In this document: positions 19,502 through 59,716 of the stretch, piece after piece
Layout of the letters: each line of letters opens with the position of its first letter
Numbering within the stretch: the stretch's first letter is position 1
Assembly (NCBI GenBank): GCA_026399205.1
Contig: JAPLRL010000035.1
Location: forward strand, 15,310 to 79,309
Origin: Gammaproteobacteria bacterium
Lineage (GTDB): Bacteria > Pseudomonadota > Gammaproteobacteria > Legionellales > Legionellaceae
Length of the DNA: 64,000 bases
Direction: 5' to 3'
Notes under the pieces: generated by a model
Told to the model about the DNA's origin: nothing
Database searches by the model: none
The model's input: the letters and a program-made list of their open reading frames with translations, nothing else
Made by a program: the position numbers and the translations under genes

Positions 19502-20776
19502 CTATGCCAAGTGCGGATCGTCATCCCGAGCGAAGCGAGGGATCTCCTTCAAAGTGGCACAGTGCCGCATCAAGAGATCCCTCGCTTCGCTCGGGATGAC
19601 GTGGCTTTTGGAACAATGCTCATTCTTTGGCCGGATTCCCGCGGATCTATTGACGGGATGAACGAAGAACTCCGCATCATCATCATCCAAAATAGACGCA
19701 ACCCATTGTTTTCGACTTAAAGAAAACAGTGGATTTAGCGTCTCTTCAGCGTCTAATGAACTTATCTCCGGCGAAACCTCTAACTCATCATCAATGAGGT
19801 CATCTAATTTATTCCAACTGCATAACTTATTCCAGAGTTTTTTCACACATTGATCTAGTTTTTCCCCTACGATGGCTAATAGCTTATAGGGAATCAGTAA
19901 AATATAACTTAACCTTGCGAACCCTCGAAAACAAAAGTAAGACGCTAGAACCAAGGTATCCAAAAAAACAGCATTTATTTTTTCAAATTTTCGGAAGAAT
20001 TGGTCTTTGCTTTTACACGAAAAACACGCGAGCAACACATTAAATGGATACTGGCAGAGTATGAACACAACTATCACTAATCCTAGTAAACCATCTCTTA
20101 CTCCCAGCAGCATTGATTTTAAATCAGATAAGATGGCTTTAAATGAGCGATAGGCTGAAAAAAGTTTATCTAAACTGGTTTCAGAAAATTCGTGTTTAAA
20201 TTGATCTCGAATTTTTTGTAATGAAAGAGTCACCGCTTGACCAAAAAAATTCAACACGTCTGCGTTCGGATCAGGGGGCAGAAACGAGTTCATCGCGTTA
20301 TATAAGAAGGTTTCAATATAATCAAAGTAATCAATGTCGTTTAATTGAATTGCTCTTACTGTATAATCAGATGCTTCATCTGGAACCAAGTCATTTTTTT
20401 CCGAATCAGTGACAACTTGAAATAAGAAAAAGTTTTTCTTAACTGATCGAGCGATATGATAAAACACGCTGACGAGACAGCGAACGGGAATAAAAAAAAG
20501 TTCAGTAAGGCCCTTTAGTCCACCATATAATTTAAGCAATAGAAGCAAAAATGGATAATAAAAATGGAGGATCAACATGCTCTTGATTCCCCCGCCCCTA
20601 CTCTCTTTATAAAATACGCATTTTAATAAAAGCACAGGAATAAGCATGAGGGCCAACATGATTAACATCAAACTAGCGCCAATGGTTTTTATCAAGCCCA
20701 TGCCTAGATTTTTCAATGCGTGTAAAAGTTCTCTGGGATGGTCGTAAGGGCCTAATTGCATGTGGTCCGCCTTCAT
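19502..20776 (-). CDS. hypothetical multi-pass membrane protein with an acidic C-terminal region; the tail is translated from repeat C3
   Basis: 424-aa ORF with several hydrophobic segments. The last 33 codons (..HVIPSEARDLLMRHCATLKEIPRFARDDDPHLA) read through repeat 19519..19601. Confidence 0.5.
   Translation of the reverse strand: MKADHMQLGPYDHPRELLHALKNLGMGLIKTIGASLMLIMLALMLIPVLLLKCVFYKESRGGGIKSMLILHFYYPFLLLLLKLYGGLKGLTELFFIPVRCLVSVFYHIARSVKKNFFLFQVVTDSEKNDLVPDEASDYTVRAIQLNDIDYFDYIETFLYNAMNSFLPPDPNADVLNFFGQAVTLSLQKIRDQFKHEFSETSLDKLFSAYRSFKAILSDLKSMLLGVRDGLLGLVIVVFILCQYPFNVLLACFSCKSKDQFFRKFEKINAVFLDTLVLASYFCFRGFARLSYILLIPYKLLAIVGEKLDQCVKKLWNKLCSWNKLDDLIDDELEVSPEISSLDAEETLNPLFSLSRKQWVASILDDDDAEFFVHPVNRSAGIRPKNEHCSKSHVIPSEARDLLMRHCATLKEIPRFARDDDPHLA
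19519..19601. repeat. C-family palindromic repeat (C3)
   Basis: CGTCATCCCGAGCGAAGCGAGGGATCTCC-N25-GAGATCCCTCGCTTCGCTCGGGATGACG. It is translated as the C-terminus of ORF 19502..20776. Confidence 0.85.
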
Positions 20777-39495: not shown

Positions 39496-40458
39496 ATGGA
39501 TTTTTGTAAATTTGGACTTGCTGTCATTGAAACCGAAGCGCAAGCCATTCACGAACTCAGCCAACGTATCGATGAACAATTTGATCGCGCGTGTCGCTTG
39601 TTACTAGCGTGTGAAGGTCGCGTGGTCGTCACAGGCATGGGGAAATCAGGGCACATTGCTCGAAAAATATCATCAACCTTATCTAGCATTGGAACACCGG
39701 CCCTGTATATGCACCCAGGTGAAGCAAGCCATGGTGATTTAGGGATGATTACAACGCGCGATGCAGTCATCATCATTTCTTATTCTGGTTATACGCCAGA
39801 AATCATGAGCATTATTGCCTCACTCAAGCGCTTAGCCGTTCCCATCATCGCGCTGACAGGCAATCCGACCTCTGCGATTGCAGAAGCCTCTGATGCACAT
39901 ATTAATGTGTCAGTTAAATTTGAGGCCTGCCCTTTGGGTCTTGCGCCAACAACCAGTACAACCGCCTGCTTAGTCATGGGAGATGCGCTCGCCATTGCTT
40001 TACTCCAAGCCAGAGGCTTCACGCCTGAAGATTTTGCCCGTTCTCATCCTGGCGGCCAATTGGGTAAAAAGCTGTTATTAAAAGTCAATGACTTATGGCA
40101 CACAGATGACGCCTTACCGGTGGTTCATGAATCTTTAACCATTAGCGATACCTTGATTCAAGTCACAGAAAAAAAATTAGGCATGACCTGTGTTGTTAAT
40201 CATATCGGTGAACTCTCGGGTGTATATACCGATGGGGATGTACGCCGAACGTTGAATAAACAAGTCGATATTCATTCAACGCCTGTTTCTGATGTCATGA
40301 GCACCCATTGTAAAACCATTCAAACCGGCATGTTAGCTGTTGATGCACTCAGTATCATGCAAGAACATAGCATCACCACACTCGTGGGTATTGACGCACA
40401 CAACAAACCGCTTGCTGTATTGCATTTACACGATCTATTAAAAGCCGGGGTGATTTAA
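39496..40458 (+). CDS. kdsD: arabinose-5-phosphate isomerase KdsD
   Basis: SIS domain (VVVTGMGKSGHIARKISSTLSSIGTPA) plus tandem CBS domains, in the conserved kdsD-kdsC-lptCAB order. Confidence 0.9.
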   Translation: MDFCKFGLAVIETEAQAIHELSQRIDEQFDRACRLLLACEGRVVVTGMGKSGHIARKISSTLSSIGTPALYMHPGEASHGDLGMITTRDAVIIISYSGYTPEIMSIIASLKRLAVPIIALTGNPTSAIAEASDAHINVSVKFEACPLGLAPTTSTTACLVMGDALAIALLQARGFTPEDFARSHPGGQLGKKLLLKVNDLWHTDDALPVVHESLTISDTLIQVTEKKLGMTCVVNHIGELSGVYTDGDVRRTLNKQVDIHSTPVSDVMSTHCKTIQTGMLAVDALSIMQEHSITTLVGIDAHNKPLAVLHLHDLLKAGVI

Positions 40459-40985
40459 TGCAAGATATTCTAGAAAAAGCTAAAAAAATTCAGTGCGTGA
40501 TTTGTGATGTCGATGGGGTGATGACCAATGGTCTGTTATATATTGACAATGCCTGTAATGAATTAAAAGCGTTTCATGTCCAAGATGGCTTAGGCTTAAA
40601 ATTACTCTTAGCCGCTGACCTCGATGTTGCCATCATTACCGGCTCACAAAATGCGGTGATTGATCATCGCATGCAGCAATTAGGCATCACCCATTATTTT
40701 AAAAACCAACACGATAAAACCCAAGCGTTTCTTGAAATCCAAACGCGGTTACGCCTCAGTGATGACGCGTTTGCGTATATCGGCGACGATTTACCCGATC
40801 TCCCTTTTATTAAGCGCGTAGGGCTCGGGGTTGCGGTGGCTAATGCGATAGACGACGTCAAGCTATGCGCTGATTATCAAACCAAAGCCTCCGGTGGAAA
40901 CGGCGCGGTAAGAGAGGTCTGTGATTTGATATTAAGGGCTCAGGGGAAGTATGAGTCTGCGATTGAGCGTTATTTTTCATCATGA
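40458..40985 (+). CDS. kdsC: 3-deoxy-D-manno-octulosonate 8-phosphate phosphatase KdsC
   Basis: HAD motifs are present: ICDVDGVMTNG.., ..ITGSQN.., ..YIGDDLPDLP... Confidence 0.9.
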   Translation: MQDILEKAKKIQCVICDVDGVMTNGLLYIDNACNELKAFHVQDGLGLKLLLAADLDVAIITGSQNAVIDHRMQQLGITHYFKNQHDKTQAFLEIQTRLRLSDDAFAYIGDDLPDLPFIKRVGLGVAVANAIDDVKLCADYQTKASGGNGAVREVCDLILRAQGKYESAIERYFSS

Positions 40986-41551
40986 GCACTCTTCCTGCGG
41001 CACGTCATCCCGAGCGTTCCATGCGTCATCCCGAGCGTAGCGAGGGATCTCCACCCAGTAGCAGGAGATCCCTCGCTACGCTCGGAATGACGTGGAAAAC
41101 GTGCAAGTCATTCGCAATGACCACCGGTTTATTTTTACTCGCCTTTTCCGGCTGGTACTTTGGCAAATCAACCCCACCGCTTTTAAATCAACAGACCCTC
41201 ATGCATCAAGTCGATGCCATCATGACGGATCTCCATTTTTATGAATTTGATGAGCGTGGCCAGCTCAGTAAACACATGGTAGCCGCTAAAATGGAGCACA
41301 TGCCATTTAATAATCAATTTTTTTTGACTCAGGTTATCCTCACGCATCATCAGTCTGAAAATAAAACAAGCATGCATACCGATGCGTTAACCTATCTGCC
41401 CAAAACCGCCCTTGCATTTACCGATTCGCCTGTTATCTTTGAGCAAGCTGAGCAACGCATAGAGTCAAAAGGAATGCAGGCGAATTTAAATACCAATCAA
41501 ATTAAGCTCAATCATGCACGTGCAACTATTAAGCCAAAAGATGAGGCGTAG
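40982..41551 (+). CDS. lptC: LPS export protein LptC, with a repeat-derived N-terminal segment
   Basis: The ATG overlaps the kdsC stop (ATGA). It has a TM anchor (TTGLFLLAFSGWYFG) and an OstA-like body. Codons 8-37 (RHPERSMRHPERSEGSPPSSRRSLATLGMT) are repeat C6. An alternative start at MTTGLF (about 41117) cannot be excluded. Confidence 0.75.
   Translation: MSTLPAARHPERSMRHPERSEGSPPSSRRSLATLGMTWKTCKSFAMTTGLFLLAFSGWYFGKSTPPLLNQQTLMHQVDAIMTDLHFYEFDERGQLSKHMVAAKMEHMPFNNQFFLTQVILTHHQSENKTSMHTDALTYLPKTALAFTDSPVIFEQAEQRIESKGMQANLNTNQIKLNHARATIKPKDEA
41003..41092. repeat. C-family repeat inside the lptC reading frame (C6), 90 nt, left terminus duplicated
   Basis: CGTCATCCCGAGCGTTCCATG + CGTCATCCCGAGCGTAGCGAGGGATCTCC..GGAGATCCCTCGCTACGCTCGGAATGACG. 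The 21-bp duplication encodes RHPERSM. Confidence 0.85.
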
Positions 41552-41616
41552 GTTGGGCCTTGGCCCAACAACGATATTACGCAACACCACAATGTTGGGC
41601 CAAGGCCCAACCTACG
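41547..41616. repeat. B-family palindrome (B4) spanning the lptC/lptA junction
   Basis: CGTAGGTTGGGCCTTGGCCCAAC-N24-GTTGGGCCAAGGCCCAACCTACG. It contains the lptC stop TAG (41549..41551) and the candidate lptA ATG (41592). Confidence 0.9.
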
Positions 41617-42131
41617 TCTTGTTGCTATGTCTTTTCTCATTAAATAGCTTGGCCCTCCCAAGCGATCGCACCCAACCCATCGAACTCCTAGCCGACACCA
41701 TCGAGCTCGATGCCAATACCCAAACCGGCATCTATAAAGGCCATATTCGGTTTTCGCAAGGCAGTGCGCATATGGAAGCAGATGAAGCGACCACCACAAC
41801 CGATAAATCGAATCATCTGATATATGCAGAAGCTAGCGCCCCTCACCCACCTTTCGCTCATTTTTGGACACAGCAGCATGAGAAAGAATCCGCTTTACAT
41901 GCGTATGCCCAAAAAATTCAATATTTTCCAGATAAACACCTGATTGTACTCACAGGAGATGCAAAAATCATCCAAGACAACAATCAAATCAACGCGCCGG
42001 TGATTCGCTTTGATCTCCTAGACCGTCGCATGCTTACTGAAAAAACCCCTACCTCACGAACACAAATTTTGTTCCACACGGATGCTCATCATGCCAACAC
42101 TCTCAGCGCACCATTTAAAAAAAGCGTTTAA
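41592..42131 (+). CDS. lptA: LPS export periplasmic protein LptA
   Basis: OstA-like body (..[59 protein letters not shown]). I set the start at ATG 41592, giving signal peptide [21 protein letters not shown]. The track start at 41514 is the alternative. Confidence 0.75.
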
Positions 42132-42816
42132 GAAAAAAACAGTCGTCAATGACGTCAGTTTATCGATTCAACAAGGCAGCTGTGTGGGCTTACTCGGCCC
42201 CAATGGCGCGGGTAAAACCACCTGTTTTTATATGATCGTCGGCCTGCAATCGTGTGATGCGGGAGAAATCATGTTAGATGAGCAACGTCTGACCCATTTG
42301 CCAATGCACGCCAGAGCAAAAATGGGCATTGGTTATTTACCGCAAGAGCCCTCTATTTTTAGAAAACTCACCGTTGCCGAAAATATTCTTGCCATTTTAG
42401 AGTTAAGAGCCGATTTAGCCTCACATCAACGCTATGATGAATTAGAAAATCTATTAGATGAATTTAAAATCACCCACTTACGAGACCATCTCGGGATGAG
42501 CCTATCCGGTGGCGAGCGTCGCCGCGTGGAAATTGCCAGAGCCCTAGCCAGTTACCCTAAATTTATCTTATTAGATGAACCCTTCGCAGGGGTTGATCCT
42601 ATTTCAGTGATTGATATCAAACAAATGATCACCCATCTTTGTCAAAAAAATATTGGCGTATTGATTACCGATCATCATGTACGAGAGACTTTGGATATTT
42701 GTGACAGGGCTTATATTGTGAATCAGGGGACGGTGTTATGTGAAGGGACACCAGAAGAGGTTTTAGACAATAAACAGGTTCGGGCTGTTTATTTGGGGGA
42801 TGAGTTCTCACTATGA
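42091..42816 (+). CDS. lptB: LPS export ABC transporter ATP-binding protein LptB
   Basis: Walker A (GPNGAGKTT), the signature [15 protein letters not shown] and Walker B ([11 protein letters not shown]) are present. I set the start at MPTLSAHHL. Confidence 0.95.
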
Positions 42817-58978: not shown

Positions 58979-59716
58979 ATGTATTGTATCGGCTTAACTG
59001 GGCGCATCGCTAGTGGCAAAAGCACTGTTGCTCGCTTTTTCCAAGACCTTGGCGTTCCTGTCATTAGCGCCGATCAACTCAATCACGGCCTATTACAAAA
59101 AGACACCCCCGCATATCAGGCTATCTTGCAACATTTTGGCACAAAAGTATTGGGTGACGATCAGAGCATCAATAAAGCTTTTTTAAAAGAAAAATTAATA
59201 CACCATCCTCAAGAGCGCCAATGGCTTGAAGCCTTATTACATCCCATGATTCAAGCTTTAATTCAACAGCAGATTCAAGCCTTGGTCGCGCCTTACTGTG
59301 TGATCGAAATCCCCCTGAAAATCAAAAAAACCGACTACCCCTATTTAGATCGCATTTTACTGATCGATTGTGATGAATCCACTCAATTACAGCGCCTGAT
59401 GGAGCGAGATAAAGTATCTCAGGCTAATGCGCATGCATTGATACAGATTCAAGACAGTAGAGAAGCCTATCGTCGCACAGGAGATGACATCATTGATACA
59501 TCAGGTCATCCCACAGAAGTACGTCATCCCACAGAAGTACGTCATCCCACAGAAGTACGTCATCCCGCAGAAGTACGTCATCCCGAGCATAGCGAGGGAT
59601 CTCCTCATATAAGCACAGTGCCAATCGAAAGGAGATCCCTCACTATGTTCGGGATAACAAAAATAATCAAAAAATTACACGCTCAATATTTACAATACGC
59701 AAGACAGAAGTCATGA
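58979..59716 (+). CDS. coaE: dephospho-CoA kinase with an in-frame repeat-derived insertion of about 51 aa
   Basis: Shows IGLTGRIASGKST (P-loop), ..LLHPMI.. and ..GDDIIDTSG. Then comes the insertion [HPTEVRx3, HPAEVR, HPEHSEGSPHISTVPIERRSLTMFGIT]. Then comes KIIKKLHAQYLQYA, matching the E. coli CoaE C-terminus ..DDVIDNNG..RLHAHYLQLA. Confidence 0.85.
   Translation: MYCIGLTGRIASGKSTVARFFQDLGVPVISADQLNHGLLQKDTPAYQAILQHFGTKVLGDDQSINKAFLKEKLIHHPQERQWLEALLHPMIQALIQQQIQALVAPYCVIEIPLKIKKTDYPYLDRILLIDCDESTQLQRLMERDKVSQANAHALIQIQDSREAYRRTGDDIIDTSGHPTEVRHPTEVRHPTEVRHPAEVRHPEHSEGSPHISTVPIERRSLTMFGITKIIKKLHAQYLQYARQKS
59505..59576 (+). repeat. 18-bp tandem repeat x4 (GTCATCCCACAGAAGTAC) abutting repeat C8 inside coaE
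   Basis: There are three identical units plus one with a single A-to-G change. Each unit begins with the C-family terminal octamer GTCATCCC and encodes the in-frame hexapeptide repeat (HPTEVR x3, HPAEVR). Confidence 0.9.
59577..59658. repeat. C-family repeat inside coaE (C8)
   Basis: GTCATCCCGAGCATAGCGAGGGATCTCC..GCACAGTGCC..GGAGATCCCTCACTATGTTCGGGATAAC. It shares the central GCACAGTGCC with C3. Confidence 0.85.

Follow-up and report, generated by a model that had tools for sequence, protein, structure and literature searches.

The window analysed here is a 64,000-nucleotide (nt) stretch of contig JAPLRL010000035.1 from a Legionellaceae genome (GCA_026399205.1; 2.3 Mb, 86 contigs, 99.98% complete). 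It contains the operon kdsD-kdsC-lptC-lptA-lptB, and the 5′ end of its lptC gene carries, in frame, a 90-nt insert made of a short palindromic repeat that we call the C family. All five open reading frames (ORFs) of the operon are named by NCBIfam, and the relatives inspected have the same gene order around lptC over the extent of their loci. The product of lptC is LptC, the inner-membrane anchored periplasmic protein of lipopolysaccharide (LPS) export. It matches PF06835 with 78.9 bits (4.6e-22; cut-off 21) and the equivalog model TIGR04409 with 83.4 bits (cut-off 38; profile position 5 falls on residue 46), and the operon position and the succession of helix and jellyroll agree with the same assignment, which had already been made in a preliminary description of the window. 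The nearest matches of LptB come from Tatlockia, Legionella and Legionellaceae metagenome-assembled genomes, at 71-75% identity, which places the host among the uncultured Legionellaceae. The features under discussion are collected in Table 1.

Table 1. Features of the lptC locus and selected C-family copies. Positions are those of the window, except those beginning with G000, which are genome contig coordinates.
Feature	Position	Strand	Remarks
kdsD	39496-40458		NCBIfam/Pfam curated model
kdsC (KDO 8-phosphate phosphatase)	40458-40985	+	NCBIfam NF007019, TIGR01670
lptC ORF, 189 aa (amino acids)	40982-41551	+	PF06835, TIGR04409; NCBI-annotated start at the ATGA
Ancestral codons 1-7, MSTLPAA, cytoplasmic tail	40982-41002	+	start coupled to kdsC stop
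21-nt partial copy of left terminus (CGTCATCCCGAGCGT + TCCATG), read RHPERSM	41003-41023	+	15-nt direct repeat, 100% identity, 21-nt spacing
69-nt C-family palindrome, read RHPERSEGSPPSSRRSLATLGMT in frame 0	41024-41092		left arm 41024-41052, loop 41053-41063, right arm 41064-41092
In-frame ATG, Met36	41087-41089	+	in right terminus (GGAATGACG); aligns with relatives' Met1; inside the 29-bp stem
In-frame ATG, Met46	41117-41119	+	alternative start of the preliminary description; within predicted membrane helix
Membrane anchor, W38-K62	41093-41167	+	AlphaFold helix 38-62, pLDDT ~91; K39 and K42 on cytoplasmic side
Periplasmic beta-jellyroll, residues 79-183	41216-41530	+	AlphaFold strands, pLDDT 81-94
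lptA	41514-42131		NCBIfam/Pfam curated model
lptB	42082-42816		NCBIfam/Pfam curated model
C-family copy, complete, 83 nt	19519-19601		
C-family copy within coaE	59505-59660	+	four 18-nt terminal repeats; same frame as lptC copy
UvrC gene	G000:C34:45281-47245		insert residues 410-432, between Pfam matches 265-390 and 434-580; frame 2
AroB gene	G000:C23:63335-64552		insert residues 220-247, between Pfam matches 75-186 and 251-364; frame 2
DUF444 gene	G000:C80:85241-86770		insert inside domain match spanning residues 36-509; frame 2

Nucleotides 41003-41092 make up codons 8-37 of lptC, 30 codons without a stop that translate as RHPERSM RHPERSEGSPPSSRRSLATLGMT, with coordinates and frame exactly as the preliminary description gave them. 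That description took the insert for one 90-nt C-family repeat; the family membership holds, while the insert is composed of two parts, a 69-nt palindrome and, before it, a 21-nt partial copy. The arms of the palindrome are 29 nt long and 97% complementary and enclose an 11-nt loop. The partial copy holds an in-frame ATG at 41021 and, together with the CA preceding it, can pair with the right end of the palindrome and the TG that follows (41001-41017 with 41078-41094). The folding energy of the insert region as RNA is −70.1 kcal/mol, compared with −35.8 ± 3.7 kcal/mol in shuffled sequences (z = −9.25). The two arms agree with the family consensus at 28 of 29 and 27 of 29 positions; one of the differences is a compensated change from a C-G to a T-A pair, and the sole change that breaks the stem, GGG to GGA, leaves the encoded residue unaltered in the frame that is read. 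Because it is nearly identical to the consensus, the lptC copy is young. The hexamer TCCATG that closes the partial copy is unlike both the flank (GCGGCA) and the element (AGCGAG), and the 21-nt unit is thus something other than a simple tandem duplication of recent date.

Two other palindromes lie close by. A mini-palindrome, GTCATTCGCAATGAC, at 41106-41120 looks like two element termini joined and holds the ATG of Met46. We considered it as the excision footprint of a second copy and rejected this, since 20 such motifs occur genome-wide against 8-16 for control patterns; it is probably there by chance. The second palindrome (GTAGGTTGGGCC...GGCCCAACCTAC, 41547-41616) is perfect, unrelated to the C family, and covers the lptC stop and the 5′ region of lptA.

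We compared the locus with lptC loci taken from 11 Legionellaceae genomes and with two homologues from a protein collection (n = 13). In the window, the kdsC stop codon TGA (40983-40985) consists of the last two bases of the lptC ATG and the following A (tcATGAgc), an overlap that the preliminary description had regarded as typical coupling. It is indeed common to the relatives, all 10 inspected junctions having the start codon overlap the kdsC stop, nine as ATGA and one as TTGA. The C-terminus of KdsC also ends at the same residue (...AIERYFSS before the stop in the window, ...ALERYLSS or ...NRYLAS in relatives). Because the overlap and the end of KdsC are kept at the same position, the ATG at 40982 is the ancestral coupled start, still intact. 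The LptC proteins of the relatives have 5-8 residues followed by a hydrophobic stretch that ends in GWYF, one of them likewise beginning with MST, and neither an insert nor repeat-like residues are present in any of the 13 (alignment A1). When the 90 nt are taken out of the window's gene, MSTLPAA is followed by WKTCKSFAMTTGLFLLAFSGWYF. The comparison of lptC 5′ regions that the preliminary description had proposed thus gives a shared start position and a repeat found only in this lineage. The 90 nt are an in-frame insertion peculiar to this lineage, placed after codon 7 and before the membrane helix; the coupled start being ancestral and the relatives lacking the insert, the repeat entered an intact, translationally coupled gene at codon 8.

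The NCBI start at 40982 is a gene-caller's choice and is not evidence on this point; the exact 189-aa product is present in the public protein collection, and shorter versions beginning at other ATGs are not. A 58-aa C-terminal LptC fragment, P0004 (GCA_015689235.1), is ~93% identical to the window's protein and lies on a 661-nt contig that does not reach the 5′ end of the gene. Given this near-identity, a close relative has already been sampled.

The structure predicted by AlphaFold2 on alignment A1 (mean predicted local distance difference test, pLDDT, 81) sets the inserted residues apart from the rest of LptC. Residues 1-37 are coil with block pLDDT values of 53-63; the helix that follows contains the hydropathy maximum (residues 41-47), in accord with the membrane anchor that the preliminary description had placed after the repeat; and the jellyroll has ten predicted strands. 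The positively charged flank of a membrane helix lies on the cytoplasmic side (the positive-inside rule), and the 42-residue tail from Met1 to Lys42, extension included, has eight arginine and lysine residues to three aspartate and glutamate, so that it suits the cytoplasm. N-terminal additions are tolerated by LptC in Escherichia coli, as a full-length LptC with an N-terminal His6 tag has been reported to be fully functional (PMC9544173).

The jellyroll itself is ~34 residues shorter than in most relatives (A1 columns 121-154; 41300-41345, residues ~107-121), and one relative, L002, has a gap of similar size nearby. Such a shortfall might be taken to mean that lptC is decaying in this lineage, the gene being no longer needed and the insertion irrelevant, all the more as LptF suppressor mutations can bypass the essentiality of LptC in E. 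coli (PMC9972910). We consider this highly improbable, because neither the ORF nor the rest of the operon is broken, the ORF exceeds both curated cut-offs, what remains of the jellyroll folds at pLDDT 81-94 in the AlphaFold model, and L002 has a similar-sized deletion.

Besides Met1, three in-frame ATGs precede or lie within the membrane helix, and there is no convincing Shine-Dalgarno sequence at any of the four. The calculated anti-Shine-Dalgarno pairing energies are −2.5 kcal/mol for Met1 (40982), −2.8 for Met14 (41021), −2.7 for Met36 (41087) and −0.2 for Met46 (41117), compared with −6.3 kcal/mol for the kdsC start, the 16S 3′ end being absent from this assembly. As all four candidates are weak, we dropped Shine-Dalgarno strength as a means of telling them apart. 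At an ATGA overlap, ribosomes can terminate and reinitiate without a Shine-Dalgarno sequence. Met46 (MTTGLF), the downstream start that the preliminary description had entertained, is the least plausible alternative: it lies inside the predicted helix, a product beginning there would drop K39 and K42, and its anti-Shine-Dalgarno pairing is the weakest of the four.

The lptC copy belongs to a family that is very abundant in this genome. We count 8 occurrences of the 26-nt arm in the window, against a chance expectation of 0, and 266-310 in the 2.3 Mb genome. Across the 121 sampled genomes of the bacterial family the arm is present in 58, representing 30 of 45 genera, and this genome has the highest number, 266 arms. 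Pairing of arms yields 94 palindromic pairs when up to 4 mismatches to the arm are allowed, and 125 pairs with 60 solo arms when up to 5 are allowed. Two size classes predominate, 69 nt (~50 copies) and 84 nt (~32 copies), and that both are multiples of three counts as much as the open frame described below. Within stop-to-stop ORFs of at least 150 aa we find 55 copies (44-59% of paired copies; 55/94 under the strict setting). The usual ends are ca/CGTCAT...ATGACG/tg, the slashes marking the element boundaries. We find no target duplication, in that no direct repeat extends beyond the palindrome (0-1 nt) in 117 of the 125 copies; the lptC copy is flanked by gca on the left and tgg on the right. 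A search of Rfam gave no matching family, returning below threshold only generic hairpin look-alikes of the miRNA-precursor type, and neither the repeat nor its peptide was found printed as a string in the literature searched.

The reading frames of the consensus are of three kinds. Frame 0 reads RHPERSEGSP...RSLAALGMT and frame 2 reads SSRAQRGIS...EIPRCARDD, while frame 1 is closed by the TGA of the right terminus (GGGATGACG); by symmetry the pattern is the same on both strands. The right terminus (41085-41092 in lptC) has the form of an ATGA stop/start, in which frame 1 ends on the TGA and frame 0 receives the ATG. Among 69-nt copies outside genes, frame 0 is open in 19/19 on the plus strand and 18/19 on the minus strand, and among genic copies in 27/30 and 25/30; frame 2 is open in 8/19 and 7/19 of the non-genic and in 15/30 and 18/30 of the genic copies, and frame 1 essentially never, genic or non-genic. 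Frame 0 is less regularly open among the 84-nt copies (9/15 non-genic and 17/20 genic copies, on each strand). Since frame 0 is open in copies whether they are genic or not, its openness is built into the family. The 55 genic copies use frames 0, 1 and 2 in 32, 2 and 21 cases. The preliminary description had remarked that the lptC copy is read in the same frame as those in coaE (RHPEHSEGSP...RSLTMFGIT) and in a 1061-aa ORF (RHPEQSSESP), and both are indeed in frame 0; from this it had proposed selection for, or a bias toward, one stop-free frame. The built-in bias toward frame 0 stands, whereas the restriction to a single frame does not, in view of the 21 of 55 copies in frame 2.

Some genic copies are found in the middle of conserved proteins (Table 1). 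In UvrC and AroB the insert lies between the Pfam matches to two parts of the protein, so that genic copies are truly internal, and the sister copies within conserved domains (UvrC, AroB, DUF444, CoaE) are on this showing translated. At the locus L018 (G000:C80:5887-7872), a 662-aa frame joins COX15/CtaA (residues 14-324) and UbiA/CtaB (390-637), with a C copy at 345-367 bridging the two; this is either a gene fusion made by the repeat or an insertion at a gene junction as in lptC.

A further test concerns copies that, as in lptC, lie near the 5′ end of a frame. It used copies with a length divisible by three and 150 or more open codons after them; those no more than 60 codons from the upstream stop were called 5′-proximal. 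The test rests on ORFs rather than annotated genes, and its result is one for the class. Frame 0 is used by 16 copies within 60 codons and 8 internal copies, with none having a stop inside the element; for frame 1 the corresponding numbers are 0, 0 and 3, and for frame 2 they are 7, 11 and 1. The 5′-proximal frames 0, 1 and 2 thus number 16, 3 and 8 (chi-square P 0.008; binomial P for frame 1 0.008, against equal thirds). Untranslated leaders would show the three frames equally, and the depletion of frame 1 therefore supports translation through 5′-proximal copies in general. This argues for selection that keeps such copies open, taken as a class, and, by extension, supports translation through the lptC copy.

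The partial copy in lptC has counterparts elsewhere. The terminal motif is repeated beside 30 of the 55 genic elements but beside only 6 of 39 non-genic ones (Fisher P = 1.1e-4). Of 39 spacings between amplified units in genic copies, 34 measure 18 or 21 nt; in non-genic copies the spacing is mixed, 17-21 nt. The amplified unit consists of the element terminus with a few bases of flank; within the window it is seen at 41003-41023 and 59505-59575. Peptide repeats such as RHPTEV (four times), EARGMT (four times) and VVSRDD (five times) are the result. The 21-nt RHPERSM unit in lptC is one case of a terminal amplification that is family-wide.

Taken together, these observations make it likely, in our judgement, that the lptC repeat is selfish DNA inserted in frame into the sequence for the cytoplasmic tail, translated from the conserved ATGA-coupled start and nearly neutral. 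A 69-nt palindrome with a 21-nt copy of its left end would have been inserted between codons 7 and 8 of lptC, and an empty site would read ...CCTGCGGCA joined directly to TGGAAAACG... Being a multiple of three, and having landed in the open frame 0, the 90 nt would leave the original ATG leading without a stop into the helix and the jellyroll. Ribosomes finishing kdsC would restart at 40982 and unwind the hairpin, and the product would be an LptC with an arginine-rich, hydrophilic and unstructured addition of 30 residues, kept in the cytoplasm; across its junction with the helix it would contain the peptide SLATLGMTWK, which is unique to this locus. The repeat would then be a tolerated passenger and not an adaptation, functionally close to neutral. 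We stress that for the lptC copy itself we infer both the translation and the neutrality.

Several observations weigh against this reading. The 29-bp stem region, at −70 kcal/mol and only 42 nt into the ORF, could slow elongation or draw RNase III. About one neutral insertion in two would come out stop-free and in frame by chance alone, and the open frame alone is therefore weak evidence. The start at 40982 likewise has no Shine-Dalgarno sequence. Without the 90 nt, 26 residues precede GWYF, compared with 17-21 in relatives, while Met36, which comes from the element's own terminus, aligns exactly with the Met1 of relatives (alignment A1). Finally, scans of genome contigs and metagenome contigs gave no close LptC, and no close relative with an empty site.

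Some of these points would fit a repeat that serves as a leader, the functional LptC starting downstream, in the first place at Met36 (MTWKTCKSF..., with a tail of 6 residues) and less plausibly at Met46, with the product from 40982 minor or absent. Met36 stands opposite Met1 of every relative and, at 21 residues before GWYF, has the same spacing as the closest homologue, P0001; an ATG in frame 0 is part of the terminus of every C copy, and a truncated RAYT-like ORF elsewhere also begins at such a terminal ATG; and the open frame alone discriminates between the two possibilities by only about 2:1. Yet Met36, lacking a Shine-Dalgarno sequence and buried within the 29-bp stem, could be reached only by ribosomes that had begun translation further upstream; those starting at the conserved coupled ATG, which is unbroken, must read through; and the closed frame is depleted among 5′-proximal copies genome-wide. 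On balance we think a leader of this kind unlikely. A related idea, that the ATGA at 40982 is a target duplication and Met36 the old start, was rejected, because the family shows no target duplications, ATGACGTG is the family's own terminus, and KdsC ends at its ancestral place.

The stability of the hairpin, just inside the lptC ORF, also invites the idea that it has been co-opted as a regulator, which would throttle the kdsC-lptC coupling or be cut by RNase III and so set the ratio of LptC to KdsC, LptA and LptB. Counting the lptC/lptA palindrome at 41547-41616, two junctions of the operon have hairpins. Equivalent hairpins, however, occur at arbitrary positions in at least 55 ORFs (uvrC, aroB and coaE among them), with no position in common; the lptC copy, near the consensus and hence young, bears no sign of local adaptation; and no relative has a structure at this place. 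A regulatory role seems to us quite improbable.

If the insertion is indeed a translated passenger, then LptC, an essential envelope protein, accepts added residues in the cytoplasmic stretch before its membrane helix, which is a modest result. It carries a warning for annotation, as N-terminal "extensions" in such genomes can be derived from repeats. The lptC locus is an ordinary instance, and the more interesting object is the C family, whose wider value lies in its behaviour, like that of Rickettsia palindromic elements (RPEs) but in a different bacterial class, its traceable link to the IS66 family and its mode of spread. With these features, questions about the family can be tested in a group to which cultivable Legionella belong.

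The link to IS66 comes from the solo arms. Many of these are the ends of a multi-copy insertion sequence (IS): they are preceded by GTAACTCCCCA, sometimes with GGTA, and followed by an internal sequence that is identical at many sites and contig ends. A near-complete copy (G000:C14:9826-12244, locus L115) encodes DUF6444, zf-IS66 and DDE_Tnp_IS66 domains; it also has a 96-aa GIY-YIG ORF just inside its right end, and three small elements nested within it break its sequence. The C arm thus appears, by its position in these copies, to be the sub-terminal part of the terminal inverted repeat of an IS66-family element. The outer GTAACT end is present in 36 of the 60 solo arms. The outer GTAAC tail is absent from 71 of 125 palindromic copies, including 42 of the 55 genic ones, the lptC copy among them. 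Compared with the miniature inverted-repeat transposable elements derived from IS66 (the ISBst12 group), the C family is alike in that its arm, CGTCATCCCGAGCGCAGCGAGGGATCTCC, is the inner inverted repeat of a resident IS66-family IS, and differs in that the lptC copy and 70 others lack the outermost 11-15 nt (GTAACTCCCCA...) and show no target duplication. Classical transposition by the IS66 enzyme does not obviously explain the tail-less palindromes.

With repetitive extragenic palindromic (REP) sequences and REPINs the family shares a hairpin-forming, highly repeated and symmetric nature, and this genome does have RAYT-type Y1 genes; in contrast to them, the C family has no 5′ GTAG tag, ends in (ca)CGTCAT and has at least 55 intragenic copies. 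We rejected RAYT as the mobiliser of the C family, as the palindrome that flanks the intact RAYT gene (G000:C72:47212-47730) is a different one and carries a GTAG tag. The truncated RAYT-like ORF (G000:C21:6719-7085; L114:1338-1704) starts at the right-terminus ATG of a C-like 86-nt element, and a GTAG repeat of another family, B, lies after it at L114. Intragenic ERIC sequences and QMITE1 of Coxiella, a member of the same order as the present host, resemble the C family as small mobile repeats whose open frames can be fused with host ORFs (PMC10969869; PMC5896051), and differ in sizes, ends and sequences; QMITE1 is 300-400 bp long with direct repeats of 2-3 nt, and QMITE2 is 150-190 bp long and contains a GTAG REP (PMC5896051).

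Tentatively, and with less than even confidence, we propose that the C palindromes are an undescribed, Legionellaceae-wide kind of coding-compatible selfish DNA that arose from the sub-terminal repeat of IS66, spreads without IS ends or target duplication by a hairpin or single-strand route, and, once in genes, seeds in-frame tandem amplifications of 18 or 21 nt that give rise to new peptide repeats, the lptC copy being a snapshot of this process. Lengths of 69 and 84 nt, a frame 0 open on both strands and the terminal ATGA motif may be a design that favours survival in genes.

The closest known kind, by our comparison, would be the RPEs (Ogata et al. 2000, 2002, as cited in the review PMC10969869), to which the C family is matched by behaviour as described there. 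In that account RPEs are ~100-150 nt long, and about half of them lie in frame in unrelated genes, where they encode a conserved peptide. Like them, the C family has many copies in one genome and in-frame inserts that leave conserved genes unbroken; both, as far as this source describes RPEs, are short palindromes found in housekeeping genes, encode a conserved hydrophilic peptide, and show no sign of target duplication or of a dedicated transposase. Unlike the RPEs so described, the C family resides in Legionellaceae (Gammaproteobacteria), has units of 69 or 84 nt, consists of near-perfect and very young palindromes with two usable frames per strand, and is marked by frequent in-frame terminal amplification and by arms identical to part of an IS66-family terminal inverted repeat. 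The in-frame insertion of palindromes into genes is thus known from Rickettsia, and what we describe here is the same behaviour in a different and very abundant family.

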